Of a stretch of DNA of 64,000 nucleotides, positions 29,698 through 38,437 are shown piece by piece. How positions within the stretch are numbered: the first letter of the stretch is position 1; each line of letters begins with the position of its first letter. Made by a program: the position numbers and the translations under genes. Origin of the DNA: Escherichia phage SHEFM2K. The stretch is taken from the sequence record PQ390715.1. The stretch is one strand, 5' to 3'. The notes below the pieces were generated by a model. That model was not told the DNA's origin, searched no databases, and saw nothing but the letters and a program-made list of their open reading frames with translations.

Positions 29698-29781
29698 GAT
29701 ACACTTATGCACCCTGTGGGCTAGTTTTTGTCTATGCGTATATAATAGCAAAGGGACTGACCGGAGTCAATCCCTTTTTTT
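29698..29781 (+). repeat. about 85-nt repeated element, copy A (GATACA..GCACCCTGTGGGC..TATATAATAGCAAA + hairpin + T7)
   Basis: four near-identical copies in window; terminal stem-loop 29753-29775 followed by T-run. Confidence 0.5.
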
Positions 29782-29792
29782 ATTCTTTTTTG

Positions 29793-29993
29793 TTAGATGA
29801 TTCTCCAATCTTCTACGATCATGGTAAGATAACGGACCATCGATTCAAGTGATTCGAATTCCCGATAGTCTGCCGCTCCACCAGCGGTACAAGTACAGCC
29901 GATTAAACCATTTTGCAATTCCTTAATCTGTACATCGATAAGGTTGGCTTTAGCTTCTTTCAGTACTTCAACCAGGGCGATAGCGATAGACAT
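29793..29993 (-). CDS. hypothetical protein
   Basis: 66-aa ORF; GGAG SD. Confidence 0.6.
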   Translation of the reverse strand: MSIAIALVEVLKEAKANLIDVQIKELQNGLIGCTCTAGGAADYREFESLESMVRYLTMIVEDWRII

Positions 29994-30014
29994 AATGTTT
30001 TACTCCAAACTATT

Positions 30015-30076
30015 GACGGGAGAACTATTCCCCCGCTCGATGTAAAACATTATACATTACTGGTTAGTACTGTCAA
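30015..30076 (-). promoter_or_regulatory. promoter plus 5'UTR stem-loop unit
   Basis: TTGACA (30076-30071) N16 TATAAT (30054-30049); hairpin cgggagaac-tat-tcccccg. Confidence 0.5.
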
Positions 30077-30083
30077 ATAGTTT

Positions 30084-30341
30084 TTATGAAATATCTTCGA
30101 TGTAGTCGGCCCATTTCATTTTTTCAGTACTGTCAACGGCGACCGGATTATTTGGATCAAACCATTCACCATTACCGCAGTACATACCGACAGCTACGGT
30201 TTTATAGCCATCCTGGGCCGTACTCCACGACATTGCACGATAGATATGGCCTTTAACTGGTTGCAGTACTGGTAACGTTTTATGGTCTTCTACGTAGGCC
30301 ATAGCTTGAGGATTTACCCGATATTGTGTGAACTGTTCCAT
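30084..30341 (-). CDS. hypothetical protein
   Basis: 85-aa ORF. Confidence 0.6.
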   Translation of the reverse strand: MEQFTQYRVNPQAMAYVEDHKTLPVLQPVKGHIYRAMSWSTAQDGYKTVAVGMYCGNGEWFDPNNPVAVDSTEKMKWADYIEDIS

Positions 30342-30417
30342 TATGTTTCCCCTTGTAGTTAGTAAAGTTATTACATCAGTACTATCAAGCTATGTCAATA
30401 GTACTGAAATAAAACTT

Positions 30418-30642
30418 TTAGATTAGATTATTGATGCCGTTGATGGTAGACTCGCTTTCTTCTTTCTCCCATTGGCGGTAGTACTTCCATGCTTCATGAT
30501 ATGTGGCGATTAGTTCATCTTTTTGATCCTGAGTACATGCCAGTACTGAATCACGGTAAGAGGTGTTATAGATAGAATCGAATGATTTCTTCTCTTCTGC
30601 CAGGGTAGCTACTTCCCGCATCAGTTCATCAAAGTTAGCCAT
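30418..30642 (-). CDS. hypothetical protein
   Basis: 74-aa ORF; AAGGAG SD. Confidence 0.6.
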   Translation of the reverse strand: MANFDELMREVATLAEEKKSFDSIYNTSYRDSVLACTQDQKDELIATYHEAWKYYRQWEKEESESTINGINNLI

Positions 30643-30709
30643 TTTATTACTCCTTTTAGTGGGGGAGGATATCTCCCCCTATGCAAAACATTATACTTTG
30701 TTTTAGTTA

Positions 30710-30973
30710 TTATGCAAGTACTTTTTTCATATAAAGATTATATTCTACACCGCCGTAACCTTCTAAGATGATATGTTTTGCGTTATCACGTTTGCACATA
30801 GTGAAACCGTTGTTGATGTGTTCTGCATTTTCCAGGGCTACATCACCGATTGCAGCACATACAGCACTTACAACGGTATTCCGCAAAGTACTGGTATCAT
30901 TAGCGGTCATAGTAGTTTGCAGTACTACGTTGTCGTATACGTGTGCATTGATAGTGATTTCGATAGTGTTCAT
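30710..30973 (-). CDS. hypothetical protein
   Basis: 87-aa ORF. Confidence 0.6.
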   Translation of the reverse strand: MNTIEITINAHVYDNVVLQTTMTANDTSTLRNTVVSAVCAAIGDVALENAEHINNGFTMCKRDNAKHIILEGYGGVEYNLYMKKVLA

Positions 30974-31059
30974 GGTGTATCTCCCGGACTGGCGGGAGAA
31001 CTATTCCCCCGCTCTATGTAAAACATTATACGTTAATCTAACTACAATGCAAGTACTTT

Positions 31060-31251
31060 TTAAATTTTATTTCCGATATAGTCCGGTCTATTCTTTTCGG
31101 TCATACGCTTTGCTAATGTTTGCATATGGCTTATTGCGTTTAATGTGTCTTCCTCCAGGGATGAATCAACATAATCAGGATCATTCTTCACCTTGCAATG
31201 GTTATGATAGCGTAGTACTGCCAGTACTTTTTTAACTTCTTCAACTGTCAT
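31060..31251 (-). CDS. hypothetical protein
   Basis: 63-aa ORF. Confidence 0.55.
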   Translation of the reverse strand: MTVEEVKKVLAVLRYHNHCKVKNDPDYVDSSLEEDTLNAISHMQTLAKRMTEKNRPDYIGNKI

Positions 31252-31520
31252 AATAAGTATTCCACTTCGTTAGCTTTCAGGTTAGTATCAATCATCAGTG
31301 GATTTTTGTAGTTCACAAAACGATTAGTTTTCTCGATAGCGAATCCCATATAATCCAGCTTACTTACAGTACATTCATTCTTAAAAACTTCTTTCGCTGC
31401 ATTGATGGCTGATTCAATTGATAACCGACCATCTAAGTTAATGTTTCCAAATGATCCACCAGCAGAAGTAGGATTACCGTTCATATCTTTAATGATCATA
31501 GTAGCGGAGTAGCTGGACAT
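31248..31520 (-). CDS. hypothetical protein
   Basis: 90-aa ORF, ATGA-coupled to 31060-31251. Confidence 0.6.
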   Translation of the reverse strand: MSSYSATMIIKDMNGNPTSAGGSFGNINLDGRLSIESAINAAKEVFKNECTVSKLDYMGFAIEKTNRFVNYKNPLMIDTNLKANEVEYLL

Positions 31521-31604
31521 AATTTTGTTTCCTTTTAGTATCGGGGAGAACTATTCTCCCCTTGATGTAAACTATTATACAGTACTAAGATACTTTGTCA
31601 ATAC

Positions 31605-36437: not shown

Positions 36438-36768
36438 TATTTTAACCTCATTATAAAAATACTATAGTACTGTAATGCGACAATAATATTACTTGTTCTT
36501 ACTTTTTCCAATCCACATGATACCACATATTCATCCCCATATGTGCGAAACGATACACCATGAAAATTTTTATACACTTGCACTACTAATCATAACCTTT
36601 CGTCTAACCAACTGCATAGAATTATACTACTTTACGCAAATTGATCAAGTATTGATCAGATCATTTTTTGATCAATATTATACAGTTACATTTGTGCACC
36701 CTATGGGTTAGTGACGTTCTCGTCTTGATGTAAGTATTATGCCAGTACTTGATGATATTGTCAATAGT

Positions 36769-36966
36769 TTATTTTAATTTTTTTCTGTCATTGATTAATG
36801 CTTTCAGTACTATACTAATGATTTGCAATGATTCATCAATGACTATAAAATTATTCTCTTTCATTAGATGATAGTTACCATTGATTGTATATTCTAAGGA
36901 GTACTGTTTACGTTTAATTTTTGATAATGTTTCTATTTGTTTTTGTACTGATTTCATGCTAATCAT
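36769..36966 (-). CDS. hypothetical protein
   Basis: 65-aa ORF. Confidence 0.5.
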   Translation of the reverse strand: MISMKSVQKQIETLSKIKRKQYSLEYTINGNYHLMKENNFIVIDESLQIISIVLKALINDRKKLK

Positions 36967-37071
36967 TGTTAAACGTCCTGTAACGCATTCTAACGAGATA
37001 AACGGTTTAGTACTGGCATTGTATAGGGTAATGAATTAAAGCCCACCAGCGTTAACCAGTGGGCTATAATC

Positions 37072-37215
37072 TTACATCTTGCGGATAATCTTAACAGTAT
37101 CTTTCACCGATTTACCGTCTTGCTGGCATTGCTCGATCATTGCGTATTGTTCTGCTGTAAGATCCTCGCCAGTTTTTGCCAGTACTGCGTCGATGAATGA
37201 ATCCAGTGCGATCAT
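37072..37215 (-). CDS. small hypothetical protein (47 aa)
   Basis: below track cutoff; own TTGACA/TATAAT promoter upstream. Confidence 0.4.
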   Translation of the reverse strand: MIALDSFIDAVLAKTGEDLTAEQYAMIEQCQQDGKSVKDTVKIIRKM

Positions 37216-37314
37216 TTTGTTTCTCTCTTAGGTTAAGTTAACTACTGTTTATAAAACTTATTATACAGTACTATCAAACGTTGTCAATATCTTTAATAGT
37301 ACTGGTAATATATT

Positions 37315-37494
37315 TTAGCGGTAATCGTCGTATGCTTTATTCACCTGGCGAATGTAACTTTCAAAGGCTTCGTCTACCGTTTCATACTCCCGAACATAAT
37401 CACCATAGGAAACTACATACATACCTTTTTGATCTTCAAACGTCATGATGATAGAATCCAGACCAACGATTTCAGTTTTTGCGATGATAGCCAT
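37315..37494 (-). CDS. small hypothetical protein (59 aa)
   Basis: below track cutoff; promoter-hairpin unit upstream. Confidence 0.45.
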   Translation of the reverse strand: MAIIAKTEIVGLDSIIMTFEDQKGMYVVSYGDYVREYETVDEAFESYIRQVNKAYDDYR

Positions 37495-37577
37495 TTTTTA
37501 ATTCCTTAGTAGTGTAGTTGATAAAACTTATTATGCCAGTACTATCAATCATTGTCAATAGTACTGTGATAATATTT

Positions 37578-37790
37578 TTAGTTAATGATAGTCAGTGTAA
37601 AATTGTAATCCCCTGCCTGGTATAGTACTTTGTCGCCGAACGTACCAACACGTTTCATATTGCAATAGATACCCATAACACTTTTTACATCTTTGATATT
37701 CCGAACGCCTGTGATATCCTTGTTGAAATTTTCATGATCAGAAAATAAAACTTGTTTTGCATTTTTCAGTACAGTGCAGATATTAGCCAT
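37578..37790 (-). CDS. hypothetical protein
   Basis: 70-aa ORF. Confidence 0.6.
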   Translation of the reverse strand: MANICTVLKNAKQVLFSDHENFNKDITGVRNIKDVKSVMGIYCNMKRVGTFGDKVLYQAGDYNFTLTIIN

Positions 37791-37810
37791 TTTGTTTTCT
37801 CTTTGTTAGT

Positions 37811-37869
37811 GGGGAGAACTATTCTCCCCTTGATGTAACTTATTATACAGTACTATAATCTATTGTCAA
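37811..37869 (-). promoter_or_regulatory. promoter plus 5'UTR stem-loop unit
   Basis: TTGACA (37869-37864) N16 TATAAT (37847-37842); hairpin GGGGAGAAc-tat-TCTCCCC 37811-37829. Confidence 0.55.
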
Positions 37870-37884
37870 ACTATTTTTTTTATA

Positions 37885-38226
37885 TTATTCGAAATCTTCT
37901 GGACCGGACTGATAATCATCTTCACCGTATGCACTTTCTAACCGCTCGCCAGTGTGATCATCAGTTAGTGAGTCATCCTCATAGTTCACGTCTACGCCCG
38001 TGATGTAAAACTGGCTATCGTCTGGATCATTGAAATTAATTTTCTGAATGTTTACAATAACGGTATTGATGCCCAGGACACCGCCATCAGCAGTTACAAA
38101 GTACTGATAGTTTTCACAACCGCCTGAATTGAAACCGTAATTAATTTCGGCCCGACCATCATTTAAACGCAGTGCCTGGGCGATGATTTCGTTTTCAAAG
38201 TTAGATTGAGCAATTGAGATAGTCAT
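37885..38226 (-). CDS. hypothetical protein
   Basis: start at ATG 38226 (MTISIAQSNF) after AAGGAAA. Confidence 0.6.
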   Translation of the reverse strand: MTISIAQSNFENEIIAQALRLNDGRAEINYGFNSGGCENYQYFVTADGGVLGINTVIVNIQKINFNDPDDSQFYITGVDVNYEDDSLTDDHTGERLESAYGEDDYQSGPEDFE

Positions 38227-38349
38227 GATTCGTTTCCTTATTACCAGGGGAAACCGTTTCCCCTCTCGATGTAAAACATTATACGCCAATTGAGATAGTT
38301 TGCAAGTACTTTTTAAAAATAGTTTTCAGTACTCAATACTTATATAATA

Positions 38350-38437
38350 GATACACTTATGCACCCGGTGGGCTAGTGATCTATCTCTCAATGAATATAT
38401 AATAGCAAAATGGCTGACCGAAGTCAACCACTTTTTT
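38350..38437 (+). repeat. repeated element, copy D
   Basis: hairpin tggctgac-cgaa-gtcaacca shows compensatory changes relative to copies A-C. Confidence 0.5.

Follow-up and report, generated by a model that had tools for sequence, protein, structure and literature searches.

Four copies (A–D) of a repeated intergenic element, at 29698-29781, 31963-32041, 34678-34760 and 38350-38437, are found in a 64,000-nucleotide (nt) stretch of Escherichia phage SHEFM2K (sequence record PQ390715.1), which is called the window in what follows. The copies and the sequence blocks that they share had been reported in a preliminary description of this DNA, and both were recovered in our analysis at the same positions. 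They lie in a part of the window (27-47 kb) that is dense with small minus-strand open reading frames (ORFs), each of them behind a repeated promoter/stem-loop cassette. About 22 sites in 29143-47732 (repeat families D1-D10) carry the ordinary early cassette, formed by a UP-like A/T tract, the promoter TTGCAA/TTGACA-16-TATAAT, a stem-loop GGGGA(N6)TCCCC in the 5' untranslated region (UTR) and a ribosome-binding site. Few of the proteins encoded there are recognized by Pfam: a zinc finger of the DksA/TraR type, a GNAT acetyltransferase and, weakly, a kinase-like protein. A scan of the window for tRNA and tmRNA gave no match. Among the 123 phage records matched by a 10-kb query around the copies, most belong to Escherichia jumbo phages (genus Asteriusvirus), and UE-S1, PBECO4, 121Q, G17 and BF17 are 90-97% identical to the query in mosaic pieces. 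By these sequence matches, the window is that of an Asteriusvirus-like jumbo coliphage, kin of BF17, 121Q and PBECO4.

Copies A–D align over about 160 nt with a mean column identity of 80%, and they were also recovered as repeat families D11, D13 and D14. As the preliminary description had stated, each copy is placed 3' of a minus-strand gene (6-15 nt past the stop codon) and upstream of the next promoter. The same description took a GCACCC..GGG core as the heart of the recurring element, which is borne out by a search of the window: the core GCACCCNNTGGG occurs ten times against 0.70 expected, and none of 100 shuffles reaches ten. The sites are at 29709, 31965, 34690, 36696, 38361 and 44919 on the plus strand and at 42923, 44862, 46823 and 47038 on the minus strand, so that all ten are found between 29.7 and 47.1 kb and in both orientations. 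The additional core sites listed previously agree with this search, the one given as 46880 being a partial copy at 46867-46886. Remnants of duplicated gene ends, the scenario that had been set against the element in the preliminary description, are excluded as the origin of copies A–D, because the proteins encoded on their flanks are mutually unrelated.

Each of the four copies includes a hairpin that, folded as minus-strand RNA, has an uninterrupted 12-bp stem (-15.9 to -19.5 kcal/mol, z -5 to -6) and a UCCG or UUCG loop of the cUUCGg type, whereas in the plus-strand RNA the stem is broken by C.A mismatches and the energy is between -6.4 and -13.2 kcal/mol. The compensatory change formerly noticed in the stem of copy D is confirmed: in comparison with copies A and C, an A-U pair becomes G-C and a G-C pair becomes U-A. 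An alignment of 22 related hairpin-promoters was made from Escherichia, Klebsiella (RaK2), Cronobacter (GAP32) and CBB-like phages and uncultured relatives, in which 95.5% of the cells are paired and four pairs are altered on both sides. For the TTGAC arm, which is fixed, the only variation in the partner bases is between Watson-Crick and G.U/U.G pairs, and pairing is kept on the minus (gene) strand alone. Read from the alignment, this pattern is the signature of selection for a hairpin in the gene-strand RNA with the -35 element held constant. On the minus strand, the hairpin has the stable G+C-rich stem of an intrinsic terminator directly 3' of a gene, and from its sequence and position it looks like the intrinsic terminator of the upstream early gene. 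In copies A–D the stem is followed on this strand by UUU GC UAUUAU, and the terminator scan accepts the site only if the UUU is counted into the stem; orthologous modules of other genera have U4-U6 at this place. On the plus strand, a perfect U6-7 run follows the mismatched stem, and the plus-strand terminator scan does not call the site. The depositors of GAP32, G17 and UE-S1 annotated a stem-loop or terminator at the orthologous site.

The same DNA carries a sigma-70 promoter on the minus strand, which in copies A–D reads TTGACT-17-TGcTATTAT (TTGATT in copy B), with TG at -15/-14; the TTGACT form scores 10/12. The inner part of the hairpin's 5' arm supplies the -35 hexamer TTGACT, and the 17-bp spacer is made of the 3' arm plus UUUGC. 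Directly 5' of the -35 region, from -46 to -40, there is an A-tract, AAAAAAAGG, in copies A–D and in their orthologues. The proximal subsite of UP elements, with the consensus AAAAAARNR, spans about -46 to -38; the A-tract is where this subsite would be, and it is predicted to be a UP-like tract. It is this tract that had been described as a T6-7 run of a plus-strand terminator. In the same manner, the second TATATAATAGCAAA of the preliminary description is the reverse complement of the minus-strand extended -10, TGcTATTATATA, and the first TATAATAGATACA is that of the conserved 3' part of the RNA, UGUAUCUAUUAUA. The plus-strand TATAAT reported upstream is present in copies B, C and D, and copy A reads TATATTTTGG instead. 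What holds of the proposal as a whole is the terminator-type hairpin with covariation after minus-strand genes and the probable synthesis of a small non-coding RNA; its assignment to the plus strand is not supported.

The cores were oriented as CCCAnnGGGTGC and the region upstream was scanned for sigma-70 promoters. A scan of IMG/VR with a 14-base pattern, plus 121Q and UE-S1, provided 58 distinct exact boxes for comparison. All ten boxes of the window and 58/58 of those in other phages have a promoter of at least 9/12 on the same strand, with the end of its -10 located 21-29 nt upstream of the box, a distance that is 21-28 nt for the ten units of the window. Among 98 distinct copies, a promoter of at least 9/12 at the fixed distance is found on the box strand in 94 and on the antisense strand in 15. 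The predicted start is the A of a conserved CAT, 7 nt past the -10. The depositors of the Yersinia phage fHe-Yen9-03 annotated -35/-10 signals at the orthologous site. Many phages also have a hairpin-promoter that lacks the box and is placed immediately ahead of a ribosome-binding site and a gene (loci L102-L209, e.g., L189, L186, L166 and L143); therefore, the box RNA is an optional payload and not a part of the promoter. As a direct gene promoter, the hairpin-promoter AAAGGGTTGACTTCGGTCAGCCCTTTTTGCTATAAT, whose -35 is enclosed in a UUCG hairpin, is widespread in viral contigs, some of about 118-152 kb. A hairpin with an embedded -35 thus seems to be a design of general use, though not yet one that is explicitly discussed.

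The RNA that would start at this promoter is composed of two unpaired nt, a 5' hairpin, a linker of 4-5 nt, the box R-CCC-(3-4 nt loop)-GGG-U-GC and a semi-conserved RNARNUGUAUCUAU. The stems of the 5' hairpin are free in sequence, yet complementary (UGGC/GCCG, UGAG/CUCA, AGCA/UGCU, GACA/UGUC, GGAG/CUCC, ACCG/CGGU, ACAAA/UUUGU and others; 29 distinct stems), and its purine-rich loops of 6-7 nt are variable (AGAUAA, AGAACAA, GAGAAA, GCGAAA). In the model-fitted alignment 90.5% of this hairpin is paired, versus 32-59% in controls with the 3' partner slid by 1-3 columns, and 4/4 pairs are altered on both sides; one of them is CG in 25 copies, GC in 24, AU in 21, UA in 5 and unpaired in one. The mean minimum free energy (MFE) of the segment is -3.4 kcal/mol versus -0.7 kcal/mol for shuffles (p = 2e-10), and the hairpin is marginal in the short-leader class. 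The box stem R-CCC/GGG-U is 98% paired, with rare CCU/AGG variants that keep the pairing, and 16 different sequences are seen in the box loop, whose length is 3 nt (81 copies) or, less often, 4 nt (12). RNAalifold, applied to an unguided MAFFT alignment, recovers only the CCC/GGG mini-hairpin; it misses the 5' hairpin because the loops of the latter vary in length. The RNA is assigned to this strand from its promoters, from the G.U pattern and from the strand asymmetry that the terminator hairpin shows.

Three other features were considered for this RNA and rejected. A long-range helix between 5' AUAG/AGAUA and 3' UAUCUAU appears in some single folds, and an all-pairs covariation scan gave it no support. 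A mini-ORF, (A/G)UG UAU CUA U.., after GGGU as the Shine-Dalgarno sequence lacks its start codon in about 45% of the copies, and the frames differ. A CsrA-type site is discarded, as the box has GGGU rather than GGA. A similarity to the tmRNA segment ACCCAAGGUGCAU may also exist.

A covariance model was built from 12 seeds. In the window it finds exactly ten copies (E 4e-14 to 4e-4) and one partial copy, the remaining 46 kb being empty; in jumbo-phage loci of the RaK2, GAP32, CBB and Yersinia types it gives 109 hits (94 distinct). About 70 unrelated loci, in which the 14-nt pattern is present by chance, gave no match. No hit of Rfam 15 at the gathering thresholds was obtained in the window, and at E up to 5 over 29.5-47.3 kb the four hits were at chance level, none of them on any unit. 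No host homologue was found when E. coli genomes were searched with the RNA. The Pseudomonas jumbo phage PA5oct has in its terminal repeat two non-coding RNAs, ncRNA001 and ncRNA002, supported by RNA-seq (PMC7318152). The covariance model does not match this terminal-repeat region (best E 0.12). In the papers found on Asteriusvirus, phAPEC6, RaK2, CBB and rV5, RpoD-like promoters and terminators are described and the box is not. We found no paper and no Rfam family for the box RNA, which in this sense was previously undescribed. The coordinates of all units are collected in Table 1.

Table 1. Hairpins, promoters and leader RNAs of the ten units in the window, with neighboring genes; features of the units are predictions, and hairpin energies are given for the minus versus the plus strand.
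Feature	Position	Strand	Remarks
Copy A hairpin and A-tract	29750-29777, A-tract 29778-29784	-	putative terminator of ORF 29793..29993, 15 nt past its stop; -19.5 vs -13.2 kcal/mol
Copy A promoter	29742..29770	-	TTGACT-17-TATTAT, TG at -15/-14, 10/12; -35 in 5' arm of hairpin
Copy A leader RNA	29693..29735	-	predicted start A 29735; box CCCACAGGGUGC 29709-29720; 38.3 bits, E 2.4e-8
Copy B hairpin	32011-32038, with A-tract to 32041	-	putative terminator of ORF 32050..32691 (weak protein-kinase-like); -16.0 vs -10.3 kcal/mol
Copy B promoter	32003..32031	-	TTGATT-17-TATTAT, extended -10
Copy B leader RNA	31949..31996	-	UGAG/CUCA hairpin; box 31965-31976; 3' part GUAUCUAU; 59.6 bits, E 4.4e-14
Copy C hairpin	34731-34758, with A-tract to 34762	-	putative terminator of ORF 34770..34919; -19.5 vs -13.2 kcal/mol
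Copy C promoter	34723..34751	-	TTGACT-17-TATTAT
Copy C leader RNA	34674..34716	-	box 34690-34701; 35.2 bits; Chi site next to it, 34663-34670
Copy D hairpin	38407-38434, with A-tract to 38440	-	compensated stem, cUUCGg; putative terminator of ORF 38441..38575; -15.9 vs -6.4 kcal/mol
Copy D promoter	38399..38427	-	TTGACT-17-TATTAT
Copy D leader RNA	38345..38392	-	box 38361-38372; 51.4 bits
Unit E	36680..36764	-	without hairpin; promoter TTGACA-17-CATAAT 36736-36764; RNA 36680-36727; 33.1 bits; upstream of a small ORF, the DksA/TraR-type zinc-finger gene and the GNAT gene
Unit F	42866..42995	+	stand-alone, antisense to neighbors; promoter 42866-42894; RNA 42903-42950; 33.6 bits; bidirectional terminator 42974-42995; predicted RNA of ~95 nt
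Unit G	44812..44889	+	promoter 44812-44840; degenerate RNA motif 44853-44889; 22.6 bits; convergent with unit H
Unit H	44903..44984	-	promoter 44956-44984; RNA motif 44903-44949; 48.6 bits
Unit I	46767..46850	+	TTGACT-16-TATAAT; RNA 46803-46850; 4-nt box loop CCC-CAGA-GGGUGC; 46.5 bits
Partial inverted copy	46867..46886	-	GGGUGC..GUAUCC hairpin alone, then U7, terminator-like; 13.6 bits, E 0.094
Unit J	46982..47065	+	promoter TTGCTT-16-TATAAT 46982-47009; RNA 47018-47065; 51.7 bits
GNAT acetyltransferase	35760-36116		early gene 3' of a unit
DksA/TraR-type zinc-finger protein	36180-36437		early gene 3' of a unit

Besides copies A–D, the window has six more promoter-plus-RNA units without the hairpin (E–J), in either orientation, and about 100 units are found in related jumbo phages. 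The module is present in 67 phage records, and those listed are of about 310-385 kb except Klebsiella phage phiKp_21 (51.8 kb). The hosts belong to eight genera: Escherichia, Klebsiella, Salmonella, Erwinia, Yersinia, Cronobacter, Pectobacterium and Serratia. Compared with the local coding strand, 57 units have the same orientation (co-oriented) and 28 the opposite one (anti-oriented), with 16 unclear. The approximately 100 distinct copies can also be classified by what comes after them. A promoter and a gene come next in 27; in 27 others the neighbor is an inverted copy that faces the unit, the spacing being fixed at 29, 40 or 47 nt; a strong terminator located about 23 nt past the motif ends at least 11; and 34 are unclassified. 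Unit F and at least 11 copies elsewhere have the attributes of a stand-alone small RNA gene, that is, an own promoter, no ORF and a terminator within about 100 nt; copies A–D run into the next promoter and are not stand-alone genes by this definition. In 121Q, copies A–D are syntenic and inside collinear blocks, and the mosaic breakpoints fall at ordinary promoter cassettes.

Units G and H form, at 44847-44949, a near-perfect inverted repeat of 103 nt, with a folding energy of -42.7 kcal/mol (z -6.1) on the minus strand and -28.8 kcal/mol on the plus strand. Convergent pairs of this kind, at fixed spacing, are found in at least eight other phages. The G/H repeat could be a long-hairpin RNA or a substrate of RNase III.

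The location of the units in the genome can be estimated from related records. In vB_Ec-M-J, the orthologue of copy B is 17.3 kb inside an annotated direct terminal repeat of 21.5 kb (1-21525), and the record of BF17 begins at window position 48,090. By collinearity with these records, all ten units appear to be in a direct terminal repeat of about 21 kb, roughly 28-49 kb of the window. In records that carry both copies of the terminal repeat, there are 8 places for the hairpin-type module, not 4.

We think it probable, from the comparative sequence evidence gathered above, that the element is a composite boundary, in which a terminator hairpin overlaps a strong promoter and a short, structured non-coding RNA is launched from the latter on the gene strand, and that the units act as autonomous early small RNAs with a protein-binding box. 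The anatomy, that is, the hairpin overlapping the promoter and the short structured RNA on the gene strand, is well supported; the function of the RNA is what we infer from it. The hairpin would end the transcript of the upstream early gene, and the same DNA would launch the next RNA from a promoter of the host sigma-70 type. About 45 bp would be shared in this way: the A-tract would serve as a UP-like tract, an arm of the stem would provide the -35, and the spacer, ending in the extended -10, would be the U-tract. The units would be autonomous early small-RNA genes in the terminal repeat. Hairpins at the 5' terminus protect E. coli RNAs from 5'-end-dependent decay, and a hairpin after only two unpaired nt fits this rule; thus, the 5' hairpin would protect the 5' end of the RNA. 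The invariant mini-hairpin box would be the recognition site for a protein, and the RNA would titrate or recruit a factor early in infection, or mark transcripts that read into the next gene. About a third of the units are anti-oriented, terminator-ended or face-to-face, which favors autonomous small RNAs, either decoys or recruiters, over a leader acting in cis.

The stand-alone copies are comparable with small regulatory and decoy RNAs that have a 5' stem-loop plus an intrinsic terminator, such as the Hfq-type small RNAs and the protein-sponging CsrB. They have a strong promoter, no ORF, about 95 nt and a terminator hairpin, and the presence of many copies that share one invariant hairpin motif is also a property of CsrB-type sponges. 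As differences, the box motif is not of the GGA/CsrA type, no homologue was found in E. coli genomes, and many copies have no terminator of their own.

Several points weigh against this interpretation. The start site, the RNA ends and termination are predictions made from the DNA. The U-tract on the minus strand of copies A–D is short (UUUGCUAUUAU), hence termination may be inefficient there, and the perfect T-run on the plus strand makes termination in both directions possible. Nothing obvious stops the RNA before the next promoter in copies A–D, where it may consequently be a long 5' UTR. The folds of the 47-52 nt RNA are not unusually stable (z -0.15 to -2.7 sense, +0.2 to -1.7 antisense), and the 5' hairpin alone does not separate the strands (-3.40 vs. 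-3.27 kcal/mol). As the box stem is nearly invariant, it gives little covariation. Moreover, an alternative helix, GGGUGC/GUAUCY, which is mutually exclusive with the CCC/GGG mini-hairpin, is 88% paired, with one-sided changes only, and the alignment used for the pair counts was fitted to the covariance model. Finally, any protein partner of the box is a candidate only.

Going one step further, the box RNA might be a new class of immediate-early phage RNA, with about ten members in a RaK2-like terminal repeat, that captures a host or virion-delivered protein and serves as a decoy or as a promoter-proximal loading site reprogramming the host RNA polymerase; we put this forward tentatively, as a possibility that is less probable than its opposite. 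Candidate partners of the box are an elongation or termination factor of RNA polymerase, a ribonuclease or an immune sensor. In other genera, box units are adjoined by a conserved protein of about 175 aa, whose N-terminus is basic and rich in Gly, Ser and Arg (MPGQFRSK...GSRGSRNQG) and which matches phrog_16530, annotated as a virion structural protein (L104 2122-2655, L163 5996-5481, L091 12666-13199; homologues in L041, L070, L052, L054, L023 and L134), and in three contigs the box is within the 5' UTR of its gene. No homologue of this phrog_16530-type protein was found in the window, and it was rejected as partner of the box RNA.

A serious rival, if in our opinion an unlikely one, is a cis-acting leader like nut, put or ops, in which the box, as nascent RNA or non-template DNA, loads a factor onto RNA polymerase after initiation, for read-through of the early hairpins or for processing or stabilization of the transcript. 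The nut sites of lambdoid phages, the boxB-boxA-boxC leaders of rrn operons and the put RNAs of HK022 are promoter-proximal elements of early transcripts. The units described here are also promoter-proximal, with the box at a fixed position of about +15/+22 to +33; they combine a hairpin with a purine-rich loop and a conserved box, the order of variable hairpin and invariant box recalling that of boxB and boxA in rrn leaders, and they are found in an early region dense with hairpins and terminators. The orientation counts (57/85 orientable units along the local genes; 27 units before the next promoter and gene) and the location of the box in the 5' UTR of the conserved virion-protein gene of three contigs are favorable to such a leader too. 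Nevertheless, a cis signal would be pointless in the approximately one third of units that are anti-oriented, terminator-ended or facing another unit, and there are about ten copies per genome. Furthermore, no match to boxA (CGCUCUUA / GCUCUUUAACAA) was found within or near any unit, the loop is variable, with 6-7 nt, instead of a fixed GNRA-like pentaloop, no N-, Q- or RfaH-like gene was identified, and Rfam gave no match. We know of no N-like protein for the box RNA.

The box could also be read as double-stranded DNA, CCCAnnGGGTGC being an operator at which a regulator of the phage or of the host blocks or tunes the promoters from about +21 to +32, with the RNA irrelevant. The invariant CCC and GGGTGC positions, the partly palindromic site and its fixed distance to the promoter would suit such an operator, but we judge it improbable. 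A spacer that has 16 sequences and two lengths, 3 nt in 81 copies but 4 nt in the other 12, is tolerable for the loop of a hairpin and usually not for a dimeric DNA site, the flanks are asymmetric and do not extend the palindrome, the CCU/AGG variants retain pairing, and the neighboring 5' hairpin covaries, which indicates folding as a single strand. An invariant stem with conserved flanks and a loop that is free in length and sequence fits a protein-recognized RNA hairpin better than a dimeric DNA operator.

The closest described kind of element is the promoter-early stem-loop (PeSL), a composite promoter/terminator cassette of T4-like phages (Arbiol et al. 2010, PMC2839356; Comeau et al. 2014, PMC4122927). 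PeSLs are likewise short repeated intergenic cassettes, with a near-consensus sigma-70 early promoter and a G+C-rich stem-loop, located between small ORFan genes in the plastic early region of a large myovirus, and copies A–D have the composite of early sigma-70 promoter and stem-loop between small ORFs by which PeSLs are recognized (PMC4122927). The element might then be a recombination or regulatory cassette of this type, whose repeats persist by shuffling early genes while the leader has no function of its own. The mosaicism of the region between related phages and its abundance in repeated promoter/stem-loop cassettes would agree with this, T4-like PeSLs being composite repeats of such sort (PMC2839356, PMC4122927). 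However, we hold this explanation to be as doubtful as the operator. In the comparison with 121Q, copies A–D are syntenic and away from the mosaic breakpoints, so that the association of PeSLs with junctions of insertions, deletions or replacements was not found for them; the breakpoints are at the approximately 22 ordinary cassettes of the window, which are the closer analogues of PeSLs. In addition, the -35 is embedded here in the terminator stem, and the promoter drives a conserved structured non-coding RNA, not a gene. The box is invariant across eight host genera while the flanks have diverged, and the use of the hairpin-promoter before genes without the box implies that the box is an added payload under selection of its own.

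The weakest explanation, that of the preliminary description, in which a short plus-strand antisense RNA runs from TATAAT to the hairpin and T6-7, the hairpin being also a bidirectional terminator, can be dismissed as very improbable, as the perfect plus-strand T-run, the plus-strand TATAAT hexamers of copies B, C and D and the promoter TTTTCA-16-TATAAT listed by the scan in copy C only are outweighed by the lack of a usable -35 in copies B and D (2/6 at 17-nt spacing) and of TATAAT in copy A, by promoters of at least 9/12 on the plus-equivalent strand in 15/98 copies versus 94/98 on the other, by C.A mismatches in the hairpin where the minus strand has G.U, and by the fact that each cited plus-strand feature is the reverse complement of a conserved minus-strand element of the promoter or the RNA and, TATAAT included, is not kept in other genera.

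The composite boundary that we favor has a further likeness to bidirectional terminators and to overlapping terminator-promoter pairs, which also have a G+C-rich hairpin with A-tract and T-tract in about 45 bp between transcription units. In contrast with those, the sharing of sequence is here precise, conserved and covarying across many phages.

Other observations were made in the surroundings of the units. The early genes placed 3' of them (35760-36583, with the zinc-finger and GNAT proteins, and 32050-32691, with the kinase-like ORF) have plausible host-takeover functions. The Chi sequence, GCTGGTGG, has 11 sites versus 0.46 expected, spanning window positions 29655-53514: nine on the minus strand at 29.6-47.5 kb and two, those at 47506 and 53507, on the plus strand. 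The sites thus change polarity around 47.5 kb (47494-47513), near the end of the putative terminal repeat. In other phages, several units have Chi in their promoter spacers as well. Such an arrangement may protect against the entry of RecBCD at the genome ends. A palindrome, CAGTACTG, occurs 64 times in the whole window against 0.9 expected (e.g., 42880, 44788, 44963, 46996 and 47068), often directly 5' of a -10 (CAGTACTGGCATAAT, ACAGTACTGTATAAT) or 15-25 nt past the RNA motif, and may be a regulator-binding site or a promoter element. Many of these palindromes are in a repeat-rich non-coding stretch of 1.2 kb (46470-47700), together with the iteron-like GGGGAACTATCTTTC, two RNA units, a plus-strand promoter at 47107 and back-to-back Chi sites. 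In 121Q a gap of about 2 kb matches this stretch, which could be a replication origin or a signal near the boundary of the terminal repeat. Repeat family D17, at 26960-28226, consists of small paralogous ORFs in tandem on the minus strand, each of about 70 aa and recurring every 210 nt or so.

A single stretch of 45 bp apparently contains terminator, UP element, -35 and spacer, and this packing of information is conserved with covariation. The RNA that it would launch is a conserved, multi-copy and structured one, outside Rfam and without description in the papers found. Phage therapy counts the RaK2/121Q group of jumbo phages among its candidates, and their early programme is almost unannotated. 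For these phages, the present analysis provides a testable map of about ten strong host-type promoters and transcription-unit boundaries in the terminal repeat. If the RNA binds no host factor, the module would still be useful as a natural insulator/promoter part, and if it does bind one, it would be a new early device for host takeover or anti-defence.

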